Shown here one piece after another: positions 11,889 through 42,933 of a stretch of 64,000 bases of DNA (the stretch's first letter is position 1; each line of letters opens with the position of its first letter). Origin of the DNA: Nostoc sp. JL33 (GTDB lineage: Bacteria > Cyanobacteriota > Cyanobacteriia > Cyanobacteriales > Nostocaceae); contig NZ_JABXKP010000038.1 of NCBI RefSeq assembly GCF_017114985.1, positions 12,357 through 76,356 on the forward strand, given 5' to 3'. Below the pieces are notes generated by a model. It was not told the origin of the DNA. It was given only the letters and a program-made list of their open reading frames with translations, and searched no databases. A program made the position numbers and the translations under genes.

Positions 11889-12797
11889 TTACTGAGAATA
11901 CTCTTTGCGCCAAGCCTGGGGAGGTAAACCGTGATGTTGGCGAAACTGGCGGGAGAAATGAGACACATCCTGATAGCCCAATGTTTTGGCTATCTTCTCG
12001 ACTGTCTGATTATTATTTTGGAGTAAAAAACGAGCACCCGCCATCCGGCGTTTAACAATCCAGCAGTTTACAGTTTGTCCTGTCTGCCTTGCGACTCGGT
12101 TAGTTAAGTAAGCAGGTGAGTAACCAACAGCAATAGCCACATCACACAAAGTAATTCCTTCATGATAATGGGCTTCGATAAAGTCGAAAACTTCTTTTAA
12201 TTGGGGAATGCAGGGAAAGATTGACGACGAATCAGGGTTCATGGCTTCTCTACCAGAGGCTTCTGTACCAGAGGCTTCTGTACCAGAGGCTTTGCCAACG
12301 CCAACGCCAACGCCAACGGCAACACCAACACCTCCAGCGATCGCTGTAGTATTATCTCTAAATACTGATTTTGCAGCTTTTTCAAATTTAATATTGCACC
12401 AGTATTGGAGACTAGCTTGCTTTTCCAAGCGAATAGCGATCGCTCTGAGCAATTCATCTAGTGTCGAGGGTTTGGTAAGATAGTCGTCTGCTCCCAATTC
12501 CATAGCTTTGCGAACATCTGCTTTGGTACTACTGCCAGTCAGAAAAATGAAGGGAATAATTGCTGTAAGAGGATCTTGGCGTAGCGTAGTTAAAACGCTA
12601 TAACCATCCATATCAGGCATCGTGATATCGCAAATCACTAAGTCGGGTATACGCTCTTGTGCTTTTTGAATACCTGCAAGACCGTTGTCAGCACCTATGG
12701 TATCAAAACCTTTAGCCTCAAGACCCTTTAAATAAAGATTGCGAGTAACCTTATCATCTTCAATGACGAGAATTTTATTTGAGGATTCGTACACCAT
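11889..12797 (-). CDS. Response regulator, REC plus AraC HTH (scytonemin regulator, NpF1278-like)
   Basis: ILVIEDD/DLVICD/TKP receiver, C-terminal AraC HTH (LGYQDVSHFSRQFR); position divergent from scyA. Confidence 0.92.
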   Translation of the reverse strand: MVYESSNKILVIEDDKVTRNLYLKGLEAKGFDTIGADNGLAGIQKAQERIPDLVICDITMPDMDGYSVLTTLRQDPLTAIIPFIFLTGSSTKADVRKAMELGADDYLTKPSTLDELLRAIAIRLEKQASLQYWCNIKFEKAAKSVFRDNTTAIAGGVGVAVGVGVGVGKASGTEASGTEASGREAMNPDSSSIFPCIPQLKEVFDFIEAHYHEGITLCDVAIAVGYSPAYLTNRVARQTGQTVNCWIVKRRMAGARFLLQNNNQTVEKIAKTLGYQDVSHFSRQFRQHHGLPPQAWRKEYSQ

Positions 12798-12935: not shown

Positions 12936-14915
12936 TCATAACTCGGAGCGGGGAAACTCTGATTTGATTAATGGCAACATCACGGTAAACGTCGTGCCTA
13001 CATCAAGTTGACTTTCTACAGAGACTTGACCGTGATGTAAATCTACAAGGGTTTTAAGAATCGATAGTCCTAGTCCAGTACCAGGTATACTATCAATATT
13101 ACTACCACGGTAAAATGGCTCAAATATTCGTTGTTGATCTACTACTGAAATACCGATTCCCTGATCTTTTACCTGAAAAATTACTTGCTCATTTTGGCAA
13201 TATAATTTCAACTCAATTGCAATTTTTGAGGAAGAATACTTGATTGCATTATCGAGCAAATTCCTCAAAATAGGCTCTAAGAGTTTTTTATCTATGCAGG
13301 CTGTTAGGGACTTATCTTGACTTACAAAATTAATCGGGATTTGGCTAATACTCATCTGCATTTGTGCAACTAAATCATTACAGAACTGAACTAAATCAAG
13401 CGGTTTTGGCTCACAGTTAATTTTTGCTGATTCTGCCTTAGAGAAGAACAAAATATCATCCAACATCTGGCTGAGTTGTTCGGTAGCTTTTTCAATGTGA
13501 TCGAGTAATGGTTGTATTTTTTTCTGTGTACGTTTGTCTACTTCTTCCTTTAGTAAGCTATTAGAAAATGAAACAATATTTAGGGGAGTTCGGAATTGAT
13601 GGCAAACCATAGAAAGAAAACGCGCTCTAAGTTCGCTAAGTTGTTTTGCTTGTTCTAAAGCTTGGTTAAGACCTAATTCTGCATATTTGTAATCGGTAAT
13701 ATCGATGCCTGCAATCAGTTCGACTGGGTTTCCTCCAAAATCCAGCACTCCATCTAGCATGGCAACCGCACAGGCTAGCCAGCGCTCTGTGCCGTTTTTT
13801 GTCAAAAGATTTATCTCCTGATATTCAAAGTTACTTGCTTCACCTTGGTTGCGTACCTGCCGACGTTTTTTGCTTTTAATCAGTCGGTGCAGTCCAAAGC
13901 TTGTTAGCAGTTCCTCTTTTGTATAGCCAGTGAGTTTCTCTACTGCTGGATTTATGTAGCAAAGCCGCGTGCCTTGAATCAGAAAAGTGCTGGCATCTGT
14001 CGTTTCTGCTAAAGTCCGAAATCTAGATGCGTTCAGCCGCAATGCTTCTTCAGTCTGTTTCGATTCAGTAATGTCCCAAATACTCCACACTCTACCAATA
14101 ATTTTGCCCTCAAGCCACTGAGGTTTCGAGTAGTGTGTAAAAACTCTCCCATCTTTCAACTCCAGAATGTCGTAACTCTCGAAATCAGATTGGCTAGACA
14201 CTTCCCAAATCAGGCGACTAAAGGCTTGGGGATCTTTAAGTTGGCTCTCAAAAAAGTCTTTGCATCGAGGACATTTCTTAGATAGTATCAAGGACTCCGG
14301 GATCTGCCACATATCGATAAATTTCTGATTCAAACTCAGAATATCTCCCTCGAAGTTAACTGCAACAATACCAATGGCAGTAGATTCGAGAGTAGAACGA
14401 AGCAAAGAAAGAGATGTTTCTAATTCTACTTCTTTTGCCTTGAGTTGAGAAAATTCCTGTTGCAAATGGTCTTTAGCATCCCTTAATTCATCAGTCCACT
14501 TTTGCACGCTCAGTTCTACTATCTCATCACTTTTCTCACGAACAAAGGCACAGCCAAATTCCATATCTTGCTGTTTTACATAGCTCATCGATATTTCTAC
14601 CAGAAAGATCCGACCTGCTTTTGTCCGGTAGCGAGATTTAAAGGTAAGGGAACCCTGTGAGCTAATATCTAACCAATTGTGTAGAGAAAAGTCTACGTCT
14701 ATATCATGCAGCCTCATGGAAAGTAATTCCTCACGGGAATACTCAGTCATTAGGCAAGTGGCATCGTTGACGTAAAGAAACTGCGCGTTTGCTCCTAAAC
14801 AGAAGGCAGCATCTACAGCGTGATTTATTAGGAAGTGAGCAAACTTCATTTCTACTTCTGGTTGTGCCGTCGATTGATTGTTTGATTTAGCTAATATATA
14901 ATCGCCAGAATTCAT
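12936..14915 (-). CDS. PAS-domain sensor histidine kinase (NpF1277-like)
   Basis: Several PAS domains, H-box HQFRTPL, NAIKYS, DQGIG, GTGLGL; upstream of the response regulator. Confidence 0.92.
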   Translation of the reverse strand: MNSGDYILAKSNNQSTAQPEVEMKFAHFLINHAVDAAFCLGANAQFLYVNDATCLMTEYSREELLSMRLHDIDVDFSLHNWLDISSQGSLTFKSRYRTKAGRIFLVEISMSYVKQQDMEFGCAFVREKSDEIVELSVQKWTDELRDAKDHLQQEFSQLKAKEVELETSLSLLRSTLESTAIGIVAVNFEGDILSLNQKFIDMWQIPESLILSKKCPRCKDFFESQLKDPQAFSRLIWEVSSQSDFESYDILELKDGRVFTHYSKPQWLEGKIIGRVWSIWDITESKQTEEALRLNASRFRTLAETTDASTFLIQGTRLCYINPAVEKLTGYTKEELLTSFGLHRLIKSKKRRQVRNQGEASNFEYQEINLLTKNGTERWLACAVAMLDGVLDFGGNPVELIAGIDITDYKYAELGLNQALEQAKQLSELRARFLSMVCHQFRTPLNIVSFSNSLLKEEVDKRTQKKIQPLLDHIEKATEQLSQMLDDILFFSKAESAKINCEPKPLDLVQFCNDLVAQMQMSISQIPINFVSQDKSLTACIDKKLLEPILRNLLDNAIKYSSSKIAIELKLYCQNEQVIFQVKDQGIGISVVDQQRIFEPFYRGSNIDSIPGTGLGLSILKTLVDLHHGQVSVESQLDVGTTFTVMLPLIKSEFPRSEL

Positions 14916-15291
14916 ACTCTTACTCCCTTCTGGTAATCAATGATCACCATAGCTATTAATGAGTTAATAGTCATGACTTACTAAAATATTTCAAGCGCTG
15001 TCACGCTGTTAAAAAATAAAACTAGTTAGTAAATTAAAACTAACATAACATTCTTAACAAAACTTATCATACCAATAAACAGTGAATTATTAAACCAAAT
15101 TTTCCTAAAAAAACTAAATATTTAATTTAAAATTTATTATTGGCTTAAACAGCTTTTTATGACAGCCCAAAATTGAGACAAATCAAATCCTGATTAATCA
15201 ATAAATAGAAAATACATTTTAAATTTTAACTAGCCCTGACACCAGAGCTAACTAATGGTTCACCAACCTAAAATAGCTGGGTTTCGACTGG

Positions 15292-15333
15292 GGAAAGGTT
15301 AAAGGATAAAAATTTTTATCCTTTAACCTTTCC
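15292..15333. repeat. Perfect 42-bp palindrome
   Basis: GGAAAGGTTAAAGGATAAAAA|TTTTTATCCTTTAACCTTTCC. Confidence 0.85.
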
Positions 15334-16062
15334 TCACCAAACACTTTGGCGAACTAGTTTTGTAGAGTCGTTTGATTGTCAACATAAATGAATTTGCAGT
15401 CCTGGGCTTGCCTTAAATGAACAAATTTTACTGATCACTTCATTTTCTTAATTTATCTTAACTTACTCTCTCAGGGATTTAACTATAGATGAATATGCTT
15501 AGTCATCCGTCGTCGGGAATACATTTGTATTATAGAGATAAGTTTTATTTTACGTATGATACTATAATACATGTCATATAAAAAACCCTTGAATTGAAAA
15601 CCTACTTAGCTTCTCCGAAACCATGCCTAATAACTAATAAATTTTATCGAGAAATTACGTACTTAGTATTTTAGTCATCTCTCAAAGTAAATATAAAAAT
15701 TTAAAATAAGATGTATTTATCGTTACAAATAATTGACTCAAAGAGTTTTTGGTGGCAGTATATAGACCGCCAAACTGTTGTAGTTCGGCTCATGCTTTAA
15801 CTGGGATAATTGATGACGGCGAGTTCAAGAGTCAATAATTGAAGAAGAATACATTCGTCAGAATTCAGGAATCAGAATCAAGACGCTCGTTCCTCTCTAC
15901 AATACAAGCAAGCTACCGCAAACCCCAGTAGAGAACAGAAGACAGCCAGTCGCTCATGGGGAGCCACTTTGGAGAAGATCGGACTGTCTGATTAAGGCGC
16001 TGGCTTCCCTAAACAACTTTTAAGAAAAAATATAACAGTTGTGTAAGTCCTAAAGCAAAAGA

Positions 16063-16503
16063 ATTGACAACCACATCAAAAGATTTTCTATTGTAAATTT
16101 GGGATATGTCGTAGCAGCGATGCCGAAGGCGGGCTACGCCTACGCAGAATTTCAATCTTTCAGAATGACTAAGTTGGAAATGTCGCATTCAGGATAAAAG
16201 CGAAAGAATTGACACCCAGATCAAACGATTTTTCATTGCAAATTAGGTTTTCATCATAATAGTTAAGAACCTTCCCAGGCGGTTTAGTAGTAAGTAGGCG
16301 TAGCCCGCCGCAGGCATCGGTGCTATTAAAGCTAGCTGTATTAAGCTTTGTAAAGATTCTGAGATGTGTTTGAGTTCAGGCTAGTTGCTAGTTTATATCG
16401 CTCTGGATGATTTAGCTTTTTCCCCGTCAATCTACTTAAGTACTGTAGGCATCACCATAGAAGCGAAAAATTTGACATGCTTATCAAAAGATTTTTGATT
16501 GCA
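16063..16503 (+). promoter_or_regulatory. Three copies of a 33-bp motif WTTGACA-N5-ATCAAAAGATTTTYNATTGYA upstream of scyA
   Basis: Copies at 16063-16095, 16208-16240, 16471-16503, each preceded by AAGCRAAA. Function is inferred. Confidence 0.7.
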
Positions 16504-16743
16504 CAACGGTCTTCGTCTCCTTTATTCTGGTGACAAGAAGCACAGCCTCAACTGTTGTATGCTTTTGGTAAAAATTTTTTGGTACTGCGCTCATAAGCAT
16601 TAATCAGCAGCGATCAACCATTTCTACTATCGACCAAGCTAGGTCATAGCTGTAAGAAACTACAGAGTCGTTTGTATTAAATATGTCTAGCGCTGTGATT
16701 GTAAACTAAAAAGCCTTTCTTTTGTGTAACTTTATGTAATTAC

Positions 16744-18633
16744 GTGAAACCAATGAGTCAAAACTATACTGGTTCAAACTCTCCTCTAATCACCACTGAG
16801 CCATATAAGGAATTTCCAGCACACAGCTATGTAGAATCTACCTCTGACTCCCGTAAGCTTGATGAATCGGAGAATAACGAGGGAATTCAGCCTTTTTTAA
16901 ACGACGAGATCGCCCCAACGCTCTCAGTTGCCGATGCGATCGCTCAAATGTTGGAAAATTTGGGAGTAAGCTACGCCTTTGGTGTCGCAGGTGGTGCGAT
17001 GGCAAGCATTTGGGGTGCCCTATCAAATAGCAGTATAGAGGTATTAAACTTCCGCCATGAAGCAGGAGCCGCATTTGCAGCGACTGAGGCATACTTTGCC
17101 AATAGTCGCCCGGCTGTAGTTTTTACCACAGCCGGGCCAGGGATCACAAACGCTCTGACTGGATTATTTGCGGCTCGTGGTGAAGGTGCAAAGGTGATTT
17201 TGCTGTCGGCTTGCACCTCAGCACCGCAGCGTGGACGCTGGGCAATTCAAGAAACCAGCACTTACACATTGCCCAGTGGAGGAATGTTTACCTCAGGAGC
17301 GCTATTCAACTATGCAATCACTATTGAATCTGCGGCTCAACTCCCGCAAATTTTCCGCAAACTTGCTTTAGCTATGGCACAACCAGGCGGATTTGTTGCC
17401 CATTTGAGCATTCCCACTGCTGTGCAAACAAGTTTAGTTGAGAATATAGCTTTACCCCAACTAGATGTTTCTCAGTTTGCGATGACTGCTTCAAAAGAAG
17501 CGATCGCTAAATCTGTAGAGTTATTATCATCTGGCCCCTTTGCTATCTGGGTTGGTTTCGGTGCGCGTGACGCAGCAGACGAAATCCTCCAACTCGCAGA
17601 AAAAACCGGAGCTGCGGTGATGTGTTCACCCCGTGGTAAGGGTATCTTCCCGGAAGATCATCCCCAGTTTGTGGGTGTCACAGGTTTAGGCGGTCATGCT
17701 TCCGTCTTCACTTATATGGAACAGCAACCTCCACTACGCACACTCGTATTAGGAACCCGCCTTGGTGAACCGACTTCCTTCTGGAATTCGGCGCTAGTTC
17801 CAAAAAGAGGTTTTGTACATGTAGATATTGACCAAGAAGTGCCAGGGGTAGCGTATCCACACGTTGAAACTTTTGGGGTTCGGTCTGAAATCAAAGCCTT
17901 TGTGCAAGAGTTGTTGCAGCAATTACCAGATGCTCCTCGTTCCACAATGTCGTTACCTCGTCCAGAACACAAAGCAATCGAACCCGCACCAGATGTAGAC
18001 TATCCAGTGCGACCAGAAGTATTGATGGCAGCAATTCAAAAGATCATTGTTGAGGGTAGCGATGCGGTAGTAATGGCAGAGTGCGGTAACTCCTTTACTT
18101 GGTCAACTCATCTACTGCAATTTGCCCAAGCCAATCGTTACCGAGTCAGCACCGGAGTTGGAGCAATGGGTCACGCTGTCACTGGAGTGTTGGGTGCAGC
18201 ACTGGCGAACAATAGCAAGGCTGTAGGTATTGTTGGCGATGGAGCAATGCTGATGAATAACGAAATCAGCACAGCTGTGAAATACAAAATTCCGGCGATT
18301 TGGATTGTACTCAACGACGCGCGTTACAACATGTGCCATCAAGGGATGAAAATCTTGGGATTAAAGGGTGCAGACGCAACACTTCCACCAACAAACTTTG
18401 CGATGATTGCTCGTGGTATGGGAGCAGAAGCGATCGTCGTCGTCAGAGAGTCGGATATTGAAGCCGCATTAGAACAAGCGATCGCTTCAACTGTTCCCTT
18501 TCTGATTGATGTAGTGATTGACGCTGATCGCCCAGCACCCTCTGGTGGACGTAATAAGAGTTTAGCTGCACAAGGAGTTAAATCAAGTCCGGCGAAAAGT
18601 GCAGCCAAGCAGGTTTCATTTCCAATGGTTTGA
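16744..18633 (+). CDS. scyA: ScyA, ThDP-dependent acyloin synthase
   Basis: RHEAGAAF, TTAGPG, GDGA...N ThDP motifs; first gene of the cluster. Confidence 0.95.
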   Translation: MKPMSQNYTGSNSPLITTEPYKEFPAHSYVESTSDSRKLDESENNEGIQPFLNDEIAPTLSVADAIAQMLENLGVSYAFGVAGGAMASIWGALSNSSIEVLNFRHEAGAAFAATEAYFANSRPAVVFTTAGPGITNALTGLFAARGEGAKVILLSACTSAPQRGRWAIQETSTYTLPSGGMFTSGALFNYAITIESAAQLPQIFRKLALAMAQPGGFVAHLSIPTAVQTSLVENIALPQLDVSQFAMTASKEAIAKSVELLSSGPFAIWVGFGARDAADEILQLAEKTGAAVMCSPRGKGIFPEDHPQFVGVTGLGGHASVFTYMEQQPPLRTLVLGTRLGEPTSFWNSALVPKRGFVHVDIDQEVPGVAYPHVETFGVRSEIKAFVQELLQQLPDAPRSTMSLPRPEHKAIEPAPDVDYPVRPEVLMAAIQKIIVEGSDAVVMAECGNSFTWSTHLLQFAQANRYRVSTGVGAMGHAVTGVLGAALANNSKAVGIVGDGAMLMNNEISTAVKYKIPAIWIVLNDARYNMCHQGMKILGLKGADATLPPTNFAMIARGMGAEAIVVVRESDIEAALEQAIASTVPFLIDVVIDADRPAPSGGRNKSLAAQGVKSSPAKSAAKQVSFPMV

Positions 18634-29943: not shown

Positions 29944-30088
29944 ACGCTCCAGGTAGCTGAGGGAAGCGCAGAGGAACGCTGAGGTTTAATGAGAATTTAT
30001 GAGATAATTTACTACTTTTGAGGGAGGCGGAGATTTTTAAATAGGCTATCAGGAAATGTACTAGGAAAGCAGTATAAAAAGCGAATAA

Positions 30089-30120
30089 ATTGACACCTAA
30101 TCGAAAAATTGTTCAGCGTA
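30089..30120 (+). promoter_or_regulatory. Fourth copy of the scyA-type motif, upstream of trpE
   Basis: AAAGCGAATAA-ATTGACA-CCTA-ATCGAAAAATTGTTCAGCGTA; 4-nt spacer. Confidence 0.6.
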
Positions 30121-30325
30121 TTATCTGCTTGATATCTAGTACTCTTAAATAAGAAGCAAAAAGTTTTTCATTACATCTTTTAAAAAAAAACACACAAGTT
30201 TGGATAATTTCAATTAGATTGACATCGAATTATCTTGAGTCGTTTTTATTTTGAAGATAGTTATCAATAATAATTAATGGCTTTTGGCTAATGACTGGCT
30301 AATAAATATTCCAGAGAGATTACCT

Positions 30326-38708: not shown

Positions 38709-39770
38709 ATGATTATCATACTTAAGAGCGGTACACCTGTTGAGGAAATTACTCGGATTAGCCAAGAACTGAGTGACACTTGGGGAGTCACGGTAGAAAA
38801 AAGCATTGGCACTCATAAAGTTGTGCTGGGGCTAATTGGTGATACCACTAGCATCGATAAATTACAGGTTCAGGAGTTCAGCCCTTGGATTGAGCAAGTA
38901 TTACGAGTGCAACAACCTTTCAAGCGGGTTAGCCGAGAATTCCGACATGGAGAAGCCAGCGAGGTTGTTGTACCCACGCCTAACGGTGATGTCTATTTCG
39001 GCGAACGTCACCCGATCGTGGTGGTAGCCGGGCCTTGTTCCGTTGAAAATGAAGCGATGATTGTGGAGACAGCAAAGCGGGTGAAGGCAGCAGGAGCACA
39101 GTTTCTGCGTGGCGGAGCTTACAAACCTCGCACTTCACCTTATGCCTTTCAAGGTTATGGCGAAAGCGCTTTAGATTTATTAGCCGCAGCGCGGGAAGCT
39201 ACTGGTTTGGGCATCATCACAGAACTGATGGATGCTGCGGATTTATCAGCAGTGGCGAGAGTCGCTGACGTGATCCAAATCGGAGCGCGAAATATGCATA
39301 ACTTTTCGCTGCTCAAAAAGGTAGGCGCTCAAGATAAACCTGTGCTGCTGAAGCGGGGGATGTCTGCAACAATTGATGAGTGGCTGATGGCGGCAGAATA
39401 TATTTTGGCATCAGGAAATCCGAATGTGATTCTTTGTGAGCGGGGAATTAGAACCTTTGATGGTAAATATGCCCGCAATACTTTAGATTTATCGGTGCTT
39501 CCGGTGTTGCGATCGCTTACCCATTTACCGATTATGATTGATCCTAGTCACGGTACGGGTAGGTCTGAATATGTTCCATCAATGGCAATGGCTGCGATCG
39601 CAGCTGGTACAGATGCCTTGATGATTGAAGTTCACCCCAATCCAGCTAAGGCTTTATCCGATGGCCCCCAATCTCTCACTCCTGATAAATTTGACCGTTT
39701 AGTTGAAGAAATGTCAGTTCTGGGCAAAGTAGTCGATCGCTGGTCTACACCTGCATTTGCCTGCATTTGA
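38709..39770 (+). CDS. aroG: DAHP synthase (type I-beta with N-terminal regulatory domain)
   Basis: AGPCSVE, GGAYKPRTSPY, QIGARN, LKRG, CERGIR, DPSHG. Confidence 0.95.
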   Translation: MIIILKSGTPVEEITRISQELSDTWGVTVEKSIGTHKVVLGLIGDTTSIDKLQVQEFSPWIEQVLRVQQPFKRVSREFRHGEASEVVVPTPNGDVYFGERHPIVVVAGPCSVENEAMIVETAKRVKAAGAQFLRGGAYKPRTSPYAFQGYGESALDLLAAAREATGLGIITELMDAADLSAVARVADVIQIGARNMHNFSLLKKVGAQDKPVLLKRGMSATIDEWLMAAEYILASGNPNVILCERGIRTFDGKYARNTLDLSVLPVLRSLTHLPIMIDPSHGTGRSEYVPSMAMAAIAAGTDALMIEVHPNPAKALSDGPQSLTPDKFDRLVEEMSVLGKVVDRWSTPAFACI

Positions 39771-40070
39771 GCGCATTGGTGAAAGCCACATTCTCCTCAC
39801 CGAATTTTAGATTTTAAATTTTGGATTTTGGATTCTTGGGCGTTGCCTAAGAAGAGAAGATTCTTGCATCCAAAATTTAAAATTAAATGACTTGCCCCTG
39901 ACTTGATTGCTCTTTTTAATTCTTCAATTCTTCAATCCAAAATCCTTGCATTGTTTGACACCAGAACTCTCAAGGTAGATAGACCCTCAAACCGATTTTT
40001 TGCAAACGGCTAAAACTGATTAACAGATTCTTTCCTTGGAAAAAATCCGTTGATCAGTTTTTCTTACACT

Positions 40071-40165: not shown

Positions 40166-40280
40166 TAGACCTCTTGTAAAAATCCCTAACACCCCAACCC
40201 CTCCTCGCTTGCTCTTAGGGGAGACAAAGCGTAGCTTTGGCGGGGTGGGGTTCTTATTTTTTATTTATACAAGAGGTCTA
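40166..40280. mobile_element. MITE-like element, TIR TAGACCTCTTGTA
   Basis: Perfect 13-bp TIR at 40166-40178 and 40268-40280. Confidence 0.75.
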
Positions 40281-40355
40281 ATGAATTTTATTACTTTGGA
40301 TGTTTTTGGATTAAATAATCTGAATTTTCATACCTTTTCAAACACCCTCTAAAGA

Positions 40356-40503
40356 TTTGACAAATTTATCAAAAGATTATTCATTGCAATATAATTCTTA
40401 ATTAAAATATAACCTTATTACACACTATTGAGTCAAATGTTCTATCTTCTCCTTTAAAAATATCTAATATTTTGATAGATTTATCAAAACATTTTTCATT
40501 GTC
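40356..40503 (+). promoter_or_regulatory. Fifth and sixth copies of the scyA-type 33-bp motif
   Basis: TTTGACA-AATTT-ATCAAAAGATTATTCATTGCA (40356-40388); TTTGATA-GATTT-ATCAAAACATTTTTCATTGTC (40471-40503). Confidence 0.7.
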
Positions 40504-40717
40504 CTTAGAAGTGAAATAGCATAAATTAGAGATGTAAGTAGCATTAACTAACAATTGATTATCTTCACTTGATAAGGTAATCAATTAAACTTAGAGCTAC
40601 TAACTAGTTGTGCTAACAAAAAAACAACATAAAAGTCATAATCAAGACTTAATTTGTCTGTTTTATGTTGCTATGCTAGCAAGATTTTTATTCTAAGAAC
40701 TAGGAGGATTAGTCCTG

Positions 40718-41401
40718 ATGGCAGATTTAAATAATAGTGGTACCGGGAACTCTTCTAGTGCCGCCGACAAGTTGAGAGATTCACCCTTCGGTCGCTTAAA
40801 TGAAGTTCTGAGTGATAAAGAACTCTCCAATATATTCAGTGGTACCGGTAATAAAGAAGGTAGCGGTAATCCATTTGGTGCTAGTGGCACTGGCACTGGT
40901 AGTGGCACTGGCACTGGTAGTGGTAGTAAGCCTGATTTAGCCTATGGTGGTAATCCTTTCGCCGGTGACAACTTTTGGAATATCTTTGCAGGCGGTGTAA
41001 ATCCATCCGCAGGCGGTGCTAACCAGGGTACTGGCAAAGACCCTTTGACTGGTGCTGGCAGCCAGGGCAGTAGTATTAGCACAACTAAAATACCAGACGG
41101 ATTGGGTTTGAGAGTTACTATTGATAACCTAGTTAACTCCAGGCTTAAAGAGGCACAGGGTGGCGGCGGCATCCCCTCATCTGGAAGTGGCGGCATCCCC
41201 TCATTTGGAAGTGGCGGCATCCCCTCATTTGGAAGTGGCGGCACCCCGTCATCTGGAAGTGGCGGTATCCCGTCATTTGGTGGTGACGGCATCACATCAT
41301 TTGGAAGCGGGGGCATCCCATCATCTGGAAGTGGCGGCATCCCCTCATTTGGTGGTGGCAACATCCCCTCATTTGGTGGTGGCGGCATCCCGTCCACTTA
41401 G
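40718..41401 (+). CDS. Gly/Ser-rich repeat protein, unknown function
   Basis: GGAGG RBS; ten 8-aa GGIPS(F/S)G(S/G) repeats (24-bp unit, about 41165-41398). Confidence 0.75.
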   Translation: MADLNNSGTGNSSSAADKLRDSPFGRLNEVLSDKELSNIFSGTGNKEGSGNPFGASGTGTGSGTGTGSGSKPDLAYGGNPFAGDNFWNIFAGGVNPSAGGANQGTGKDPLTGAGSQGSSISTTKIPDGLGLRVTIDNLVNSRLKEAQGGGGIPSSGSGGIPSFGSGGIPSFGSGGTPSSGSGGIPSFGGDGITSFGSGGIPSSGSGGIPSFGGGNIPSFGGGGIPST

Positions 41402-41646: not shown

Positions 41647-42933
41647 TTGGTACTAATGGAAGCATCTGCTGTCAATCCGATTAATGGTGAGGTTAACACT
41701 TTTAGTGCCACTGGCGATCGCAACCTGTATAGCGGTAGTTCCTTTGCTACCAATGGCAGTTTATATCCTGAAGGCAGCTTGTTGACAGGTGGTAGCAATC
41801 TCTTTGCAGGTAACAATCCCATTCCAGGTGGCGGTATCAACGCCTTTGCTGGCGATGGTGGCAGTAAGCTTCAGCAATTAATCTTTGATCGCTTGAAGTT
41901 AGTTCTGGGTGAAAATTTTTTCCAGCGCACTGACAACACATTAGCAGGTGGAAATAACCCATTTCTAAACGGTGGCAATCTCATTGCAGGTGGCAGTACC
42001 AACCCCTTTGCTGGCAACAGTAATCCTATAGCAGGTGCTGGAAGTCTGCTTCAACAATCGCCTTTCGATCCGTTGAGAGAAGTCCTTGGTAATAATATAC
42101 CTTTTGGTAACAGTGGCAATACGTCTAATGCTGCTATTAGTAGCCCACCCTTTAATCAGGGCAAGGCACCCGTTGGTAATAGCAACAGGAACTTTGGTAG
42201 TAACAACGCAACCATTGGTAATTTTAACTCGGATTATGGCAGCAACAGCGCAACCATTGGCAATGGGAACTGGAACTTTAATCAGGACAACGCAACTATT
42301 GGTAATGGCAACTGGCTATTTGCAAGTGATAACACAACCCTTGGTAACGGTAATTGGTATTGGGACAAGGGAAATAATAATGCAACATTAGGTAATGGTA
42401 ATTGGAACTTCAGGAGTAACAACGCAACCATTGGAAATGGCAATTGGGACTTCGGTAAGAACAACACAATTATTGGTAATGGTAACTGGGTTTTTACAAA
42501 TGGAAATACAATCATTGGTAATGCCAATTGGCTAGCGGATAGTGACAACATAACCATTGGAAACATCAATAACCCCAGCATTTTAGGGTTATTTCCGCAA
42601 GGAATCAAGACTAATGTTAACAATCTGATTGACTCCCTTATAGGTAAAATAGGTCAAGATTTTGTTGGGTTAACAGGAGATTTTGATCTATCAAGTAGCC
42701 AGACATTTAACCGACTCATTTCTTCTAAAAGTGCTGGTATTAATGACACTAATTATCTTAAGGATATTGGGCAACTTTTGGCATCACTCAGCAAAATTCA
42801 AGGGAATGTGATTAATTATCAGCCTGTGCAAAACCCTCAGCCTGTTCCAGAACCTGCTTCTTCAGTGCCTCTGGTAGTAATGGGACTTGTATGTTTGCTG
42901 TTATCAGTCTTCAAAAAACAACAACGCTGTTAA
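41647..42933 (+). CDS. PEP-CTERM protein with nine 14-aa NATIGNGNW repeats
   Basis: AGGAG RBS before TTG 41647 / ATG 41656; C-terminal VPEP+TM+KKQQR. Confidence 0.85.
   Translation: MVLMEASAVNPINGEVNTFSATGDRNLYSGSSFATNGSLYPEGSLLTGGSNLFAGNNPIPGGGINAFAGDGGSKLQQLIFDRLKLVLGENFFQRTDNTLAGGNNPFLNGGNLIAGGSTNPFAGNSNPIAGAGSLLQQSPFDPLREVLGNNIPFGNSGNTSNAAISSPPFNQGKAPVGNSNRNFGSNNATIGNFNSDYGSNSATIGNGNWNFNQDNATIGNGNWLFASDNTTLGNGNWYWDKGNNNATLGNGNWNFRSNNATIGNGNWDFGKNNTIIGNGNWVFTNGNTIIGNANWLADSDNITIGNINNPSILGLFPQGIKTNVNNLIDSLIGKIGQDFVGLTGDFDLSSSQTFNRLISSKSAGINDTNYLKDIGQLLASLSKIQGNVINYQPVQNPQPVPEPASSVPLVVMGLVCLLLSVFKKQQRC

Follow-up and report, generated by a model that had tools for sequence, protein, structure and literature searches.

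[quoted passage not shown]

The window (the whole 64,000-nucleotide stretch of Nostoc sp. JL33 DNA analysed here) contains a complete gene cluster for scytonemin, the most widespread cyanobacterial UV-A sunscreen and a compound of cosmetic and biotechnological interest. scyA (16753-18633, + strand; NF035923 TPP_ScyA, 1128 bits) opens the run of scyABCDEF and aromatic amino-acid genes. It diverges from the kinase and regulator genes; downstream of it come the other scy genes, scyB to scyF, and then the aromatic genes, the last of which is aroG (38709-39770); trpE was identified by TIGR01815 (1258 bits). The ScyA model begins at residue 4 of the ORF that opens with GTG-16744, which corresponds to the ATG at 16753. 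On the - strand, the gene for the scytonemin sensor histidine kinase (PAS-PAS-HisKA-HATPase, 12936-14915; NCBIfam NF045595 HK_scytonemin, 1105 bits, cut-off 865) adjoins that for ScyR (11889-12797), a response regulator with a REC domain and an AraC-type HTH (Pfam Response_reg 9-120, HTH_18 221-298, HTH_AraC) that is the orthologue of Npun_F1278. The scytonemin regulator has been known since 2009-2016. When four scy clusters were compared, it was the only other gene common to all of them (Soule 2009, PMC2726228). In N. punctiforme it is needed for scy expression (PMC9127174; PMC7997468), and its deletion lowers expression of the scy operon ~200-fold and leaves ebo unaffected (PMC9127174).

Upstream of scyA, three copies of one motif lie on the + strand at 16064-16095, 16209-16240 and 16472-16503. 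All three match TTGACA-N5-ATCAAANGATTTTNNATTGNA with 0 mismatches, and the pattern had no match in 100 shuffles. A preliminary description of this DNA had reported a motif in triplicate here, preceded each time by AAGCRAAA and variable in its central 5 nt. The three copies are as it claimed, although its starts lie one base early since the preceding A was counted. The variable centre was confirmed, and a repeat search grouped the copies as a single 51-nt family, the AAGCRAAA 5' flank included. We found no similarity in the sequence between the copies. "Triplicate" holds for the scyA upstream region only: a pattern search adds one copy with 1 mismatch at 40357 and one with 3 mismatches at 40472, and a PWM adds a degenerate copy at 30078.

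This split PWM was trained on 174 orthologous scyA sites and used with a spacer of 3-7 nt and a threshold of 8 bits. It scored the distal scyA copy (16052-16096, TTGACA at 16064, +) at 64.2 bits, the middle copy (16197-16241, TTGACA at 16209, +) at 60.9 bits and the proximal copy (16460-16504, TTGACA at 16472, +) at 64.8 bits. The distal class is kept in Nostoc with a signature of its own, TTTTCTATTGTAAATTTGG. The copy upstream of trpE (30078-30121, +; 24.0 bits) has a 4-nt spacer, a good left half-site and a weak right half. At the cluster end, copy 4 (40345-40389, TTGACA at 40357, +; 30.7 bits) is the upstream one of a pair, and copy 5 (40460-40504, TTGATA at 40472, +; 12.7 bits) is the promoter-proximal one.

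Across the 7.1-Mb assembly, six sites reached 8 bits. Every one belongs to the scy cluster and reads along its coding (+) strand: scyA has three of them upstream, trpE one, and a pair of Gly-rich genes that follows aroG two. The reversed genome, used as a control, gave zero sites at this threshold. With up to three mismatches allowed, the pattern occurred five times assembly-wide, each time in the window and on the + strand. Six copies in one cluster rule out a mobile or small dispersed repeat or a MITE. The preliminary description had likewise seen a selected site rather than a mobile repeat, and the hundreds of genomic copies that it named as grounds for refutation were not found. We dropped a match to the right block only (C79:29681, 25 bits) as a chance match, because it lacks a left half and falls within a CDS of the opposite strand. 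The ebo cluster is also on contig C79, and its 11 kb contained no site of 8 bits or more. We excluded ebo from the regulon on this ground, in agreement with Klicki 2022. Since ebo lacks the motif here and is independent of the regulator in N. punctiforme, the distribution of the motif matches regulator dependence.

We then compared relatives, using a panel of 151 genomes of the same family in which ScyA was called above the curated cut-off. The motif was present in 62 genomes and ScyA in 64; 57 had both, 5 the motif only, 7 ScyA only and 82 neither. The motif thus tracks ScyA (57/64 vs 5/87 genomes; Fisher p = 1.4e-27, a value that overstates independence because the phylogenetically related panel genomes share ancestry). 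In six of the seven ScyA-only genomes, copies diverged to 10-39 bits sit where they are expected, so that a PWM re-scan brought the count to 63/64. One motif-only genome (G134, locus L145, G134:C1:2144300-2147900) has a decayed scy locus in which the kinase and a good motif are kept and the motif is followed only by a 118-aa ORF like the ScyA N-terminus, a truncated scyA. ScyA-related paralogues that score 900-1000 bits, under the ScyA cut-off, are common in the panel. Many of them show one to three in-frame stops in six-frame read-through and may be pseudogenes or reflect alignment past gene ends.

The motif also keeps its position. Seventy of the 131 panel matches sit 226-660 bp 5' of scyA on the same strand, with the proximal copy ~235-250 bp ahead of the start of the ScyA model or match in nearly all genomes, and 14 lie 21-31 kb downstream of scyA, again on the same strand, at the cluster end. 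Among 80 named orthologous scyA upstream regions (from Nostoc, Komarekiella, Dendronalium, Cylindrospermum, Anabaena, Halotia, Cyanocohniella, Umezakia, Nodularia, Trichormus and Desmonostoc; N. punctiforme is not among them), 79 contain the motif, forward in all, and none has it in reverse orientation. Three scyA-upstream copies are typical of the Nostoc clade. In other families the motif was found 5' of scyA in 10/10 (f5), 2/2 (f48) and 3/3 (f60) cases, and in family f11 it lies 4.1 kb upstream of scyA on the same strand. Families f3, f8 and f61, which have ScyA and regulator orthologues of 50-63% identity, gave no motif at the thresholds used. At least five cyanobacterial families therefore keep the motif, with diverged flanks, and the conservation in orthologous scyA promoters that the preliminary description had named as a check extends to a fixed position and orientation.

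What accompanies the motif across families is the regulator. Genomes of f5, f48 and f60 that have no full-length HK_scytonemin still carry a REC-AraC gene within ~1 kb of the motif, often ending just 5' of it on the scyA strand, and the REC-AraC protein is the only regulator that is consistently adjacent. The motif had been linked to the AraC-type regulator from the start, and its presence does track the adjacent REC-AraC gene. We considered the kinase as the main correlate and rejected it: outside Nostocaceae, full-length HK_scytonemin occurs in one genus only, the motif is wider than that, and the regulator correlates better. At L160-L162 (f60 genomes G646, G606 and G581) and L158 (G524), a second copy close to the regulator gene points the opposite way, which implies that some target is transcribed divergently.

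Motif coordinates are counted here with the first T of TTGACA as 1, and on this scale the conserved core spans ~-11 to +33. Half-site 1 (~-10 to +11) reads A(G/T)C(G/A)AAAGAATTGACA plus the variable N5, and half-site 2 (+12 to +32) reads ATCAAAAGATTTTTSATTGCA. Copies from outside the family, of the form ATCGAAAGAATTGACA-N5-ATCAAAAGATTATTCATTG, reveal a direct repeat, and the half-site consensus ATCRAAAGAwTT..CA occurs twice in the motif. The self-similarity of the information-weighted profile has its maximum at lag 21 (0.633 per column), a value reached by 31/2000 column shuffles at any lag from 6 to 29 (p about 0.016, which is moderate, the half-sites being imperfect copies). In the proximal scyA copy, this 21-bp self-similarity places half-site 1 at 16462-16482 and half-site 2 at 16483-16503 on the + strand. 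Judged by its sequence, the motif is a pair of 21-bp direct-repeat half-sites, the arrangement of an AraC/XylS class-II site. This refines the earlier picture of fixed flanks around a variable centre, which is really the two half-sites.

The motif also stands at a fixed distance from a TAnnnT box. Of the proximal scyA copies, 67/67 have a TAnnnT that begins at coordinate 52 (or 51). The box is placed in this way at 10/11 scyA sites from outside the family and at 16/20 sites of genes other than scyA, and the sequence between motif and box is unconserved. With this offset, TTGCA(A) would fall at -36..-31 as a -35 box: we assign TTGCA(A/C) at +28..+33 as the putative -35 box and +52..+57 as the -10 box, with an 18-bp spacer and a predicted start at ~+64, on the basis of conservation. 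For scyA this gives a predicted -35 box TTGCAC at 16499-16504 (+), at the 3' end of the proximal copy, a predicted -10 box TATTCT at 16523-16528 (+), which is kept in a multi-genus alignment, and a predicted transcription start at about position 16535 of the window. A generic sigma-70 scan (>=9/12 matches, 16-18 bp spacing) detected no promoter in 15950-16760, where 2.0 are expected from shuffles. TTGCAC-N18-TATTCT matches only 7/12 consensus positions, as expected of an activator-dependent promoter. This predicted geometry would agree with the suggestion of the preliminary description that a long asymmetric site of AraC type lies near -35.

TAnnnT is missing from the middle and distal scyA copies, and in the window neither the middle (16197-16241) nor the distal copy (16052-16096) has a -10 box at the canonical offset. 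Because only the proximal copy has one, the two upstream copies are probably auxiliary activator sites, a role that is conjectural. Upstream of trpE, a predicted -10 box TACTCT (30140-30145, +) accompanies the degenerate copy, which is predicted to act as a weaker internal promoter; 5/6 other genomes have an equivalent site with a correctly placed TAnnnT. The predicted -10 box of cluster-end copy 5 is TAAATT (40522-40527, +; TAnnnT at offset 39). Counting 12 nt on from the first base of TAnnnT, as for scyA, puts the predicted starts at ~30152 for trpE and ~40534 for the Gly-rich gene. A TATAAT directly after copy 4 (40390-40395) was left out of the model, as it is not kept at equivalent sites elsewhere.

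Distances between copies group at 124-125, 136-137, 145-146, 240, 250-251 and 272 bp. These are near-integer multiples of ~10.4 bp, a hint that copies may cooperate on one face of the helix. We did not rely on strict helical phasing, since variants of 121-130 bp exist and the loci are related. In the window, an inverted pair of a GC-rich element with a GGCGGGCTACGCCTAC core (16112-16143 and 16294-16325) flanks the middle motif copy, and it probably explains why the spacings here are 145 + 263 bp instead of the usual 125 + 250 bp. The GGCGGGCTACGCCTAC core has 22 genomic copies and is a small dispersed repeat. The intergenic region between the kinase gene and scyA also contains a 48-bp near-perfect palindrome (15289-15336) with 24-nt arms that are 96% complementary and no loop.

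From the predicted start, scyA would have a 218-nt leader (16535-16752, +), its 5' end placed by the promoter geometry. The leader keeps its length from genus to genus, and with it several sequence blocks, namely CAACAGAGTTGTTTGTATTA, GGAATTACGTGAAAGCAATG and, at the predicted start, AAGAAGCACAGCCT. GAAGCAC in the leader is also found in family f5. We rejected a structured RNA or riboswitch in the leader on two results: RNAalifold on 23 leaders found no consensus pairs, and Rfam returned for the region only spurious miRNA matches, on the palindrome at 15289-15336.

Beyond the biosynthetic genes, the two cluster-end copies precede an ORF for a Gly/Ser-rich protein of 227 aa (MADLNNSGTGNSS...SPFGRL...; 40718-41401, +), a predicted regulon member, and an ORF for a second, Gly/Asn-rich repeat protein of 428 aa (41647-42933, +), which is probably co-transcribed with the former. 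Neither has a Pfam or NCBIfam match. A terminator-like hairpin (40022-40051, a minus-strand call) and an inverted element rich in G and C, CCCCAACCCCTCC...GGGGTGGGG (40190-40260), lie between aroG and the cluster-end motifs, which suggests that the Gly-rich genes form a transcription unit apart from the scy operon. N-termini homologous to ORF 40718 come after the motif in at least 10 other genomes, in scy-linked or unlinked positions. The motif-preceded homologue of 40718 is usually followed by a gene like 41647, so that the pair as such recurs behind the motif in other genomes.

Taken across genomes, the cluster-end and unlinked sites precede three classes of gene, namely those for Gly/Asn-rich proteins, for a ScyD/ScyE-family propeller and for a ~220-aa protein. 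The propeller gene is unlinked to scy at L036, L037 and L041 (genomes G146, G012 and G006; NF033206, 399 bits). Its product has an N-terminal signal-like hydrophobic segment, and the motif variant ATGTCAAGCCTATCAAAAGATTATTCATTGCA with a correctly placed -10 box lies ahead of the gene. The protein of ~215-220 aa, found at L038, L040, L043 and L044 (genomes G115, G006 and G135), also unlinked to scy and with a near-perfect motif upstream, has an N-terminal signal-like segment (MQVILRSYTAKLVPVTLMLLGFGLG...AQTSYP...) and weak PEP-CTERM similarity.

Given how specific and conserved the motif is, and given its geometry and the genes to which it is linked, we consider it likely that the element is the DNA-binding site of ScyR acting as a class-II AraC-type activator, fused to a weak sigma-70-type promoter. 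The preliminary description had left a choice between the regulator's site and a regulon-specific promoter; the sequence evidence says that it would be both. In the mechanism we propose, UV-A would activate the adjacent kinase, which would phosphorylate ScyR and so allow it to dimerise. The ScyR dimer would sit on the two half-sites, from ~-74 to -32, overlapping the -35 box, and would recruit RNA polymerase as the class-II activators AraC, XylS and RhaS do. The middle and distal scyA copies, which have no -10 box, probably serve as auxiliary sites and would make induction sharper or stronger. Weaker versions of the module would provide the internal promoter before trpE and the promoter before the two Gly-rich genes at the cluster end. 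Two features of the motif count against this reading. The perfect TTGACA at +1..+6 could be the -35 box of another promoter reading, and the short TTGA-N8-TCAA dyad could be used by a dimeric regulator of another family.

The dyad raises the question of whether the motif is a genuine scy-specific operator that some other factor binds, either a CRP/FNR-like or other dimer on the TTGA-N8-TCAA and ATCAAAA-N3-TTTTGAT dyads or a repressor, with ScyR acting elsewhere or indirectly. The motif does contain these short dyads, and its profile aligns with its own inverse to a degree that is not negligible, although we read the score of this alignment as mostly A-tract against T-tract matches. Klicki 2022 proposes further unidentified repressors on the scy two-component locus, and the tie between ScyR and the motif DNA is drawn from sequence and linkage. 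A symmetric site would not be expected to keep a strict orientation, yet there was no reverse match in the 80 scyA regions, nor any reverse-strand site across seven whole clusters. The spacing of TTGA-N8-TCAA differs from that of FNR and CRP sites (TTGAT-N4-ATCAA or TGTGA-N6-TCACA). Such sites are two-fold symmetric and work in either orientation, whereas the full motif is asymmetric and occurs forward only. REC-AraC is moreover the sole regulator gene consistently adjacent across families, and its deletion abolishes scy transcription. We therefore regard a different binder as unlikely.

Somewhat less likely still is that the whole element is the promoter of a dedicated alternative sigma factor, with TTGACA as -35 box, TTSATT/TATTGT as an unusual -10 box and no activator. 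TTGACA is a perfect, nearly invariant -35 consensus with a hexamer 17-19 bp downstream, and Klicki 2022 ties scytonemin control to a partner-switching (anti-sigma) module. Against this, the TTSATT at 17-bp spacing is without the critical A at position 2, and a conserved block 12 bp 5' of TTGACA and the TAnnnT at +52 in 67/67 proximal copies would be left unexplained. Such a promoter cannot explain why copies without the TAnnnT box are equally conserved, and 45 conserved bp are far above the length of a sigma recognition element. As for the idea that local tandem duplication or a small mobile repeat left the copies behind and that they have no regulatory role, the long intergenic region does contain the dispersed GC-rich repeats (22 genomic copies) and the 48-bp palindrome, and a copy spacing of ~125 bp could represent duplication units. 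This reading is effectively refuted already and scarcely credible to us: there are six copies genome-wide in a single cluster, the sequence between them is dissimilar, the motif is kept in at least five families with diverged flanks, and specific classes of gene at unlinked loci have it upstream as well, again with the -10 offset fixed.

If the element is the ScyR site, its distribution has consequences for scytonemin biology. We tentatively propose, as possible rather than probable, that the ScyR regulon is wider than the biosynthetic operon, that the Gly/Asn-rich pair, the ScyD/ScyE paralogue and the ~220-aa protein are unrecognised parts of extracellular scytonemin maturation or sheath deposition, and that the in-phase multiple sites form a cooperative, loop-forming switch. 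Were this true, and were N. punctiforme to have it, the unlinked ScyD/ScyE paralogue might explain why a delta-scyD mutant still makes scytonemin and shows no phenotype.

Our literature search found no published ScyR site or scyA transcription start, consistent with the preliminary description, which knew of none, and a Nodularia TSS paper has nothing on scy. A review calls for precisely such an element (PMC7997468), and a 2026 engineering paper over-expresses ScyR without a known target site (PMC13707963). The present element offers a precise 45-bp candidate site with predicted half-sites, -35 and -10 boxes and transcription start, and thereby a compact candidate UV-A-inducible promoter module for synthetic biology in Nostoc. 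It also delimits a candidate direct regulon against the hundreds of genes affected indirectly in mutant transcriptomes; this predicted regulon takes in the internal trpE promoter and putatively secreted proteins and leaves out ebo.

The architecture resembles that of known proteobacterial activator sites. AraC at araI1-I2, RhaS, RhaR and XylS (at Pm) bind two direct-repeat half-sites of ~17-21 bp with a 21-bp period. Such sites span ~-75 to -32, overlapping the -35 box of a weak promoter, and extra sites for the same protein lie upstream. The scy motif is likewise a long, asymmetric, oriented direct repeat with a predicted -35 overlap and additional upstream sites. However, a phosphorylated receiver, and not a domain that binds a sugar or other effector, would activate ScyR. 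Its putative half-sites are unrelated in sequence to the proteobacterial ones and belong to a cyanobacterium, as many as three full sites occur at spacings of ~125/250 bp, and the scy binding site is a prediction. Among light-responsive systems, the CcaR G-box and the RcaC L-box are direct repeats 5' of the -35 of photoreceptor-controlled operons and are bound by the cognate response regulator. They share with the scy element the direct-repeat boxes upstream of -35 in two-component light promoters, but CcaR and RcaC are OmpR-class regulators with repeats of ~6-7 bp, whereas the scy element, at 45 bp, suits a protein of AraC type, in which each monomer has two HTH units.

The closest cyanobacterial analogue, by comparison of the systems, would be the UirS-UirR-PlsiR system of Synechocystis PCC 6803, in which a UV-A/violet sensor and an AraC-family response regulator act on the neighbouring lsiR promoter (PMC3546692). 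We found no defined UirR site in the literature for comparison. Both are UV-A-responsive two-component systems with an AraC-family regulator and an adjacent target promoter. UirS is a cyanobacteriochrome with an ethylene-binding-like membrane domain, whereas the scytonemin kinase is a soluble PAS kinase, and the output of UirS-UirR is phototaxis, whereas that of the scy system is sunscreen synthesis.
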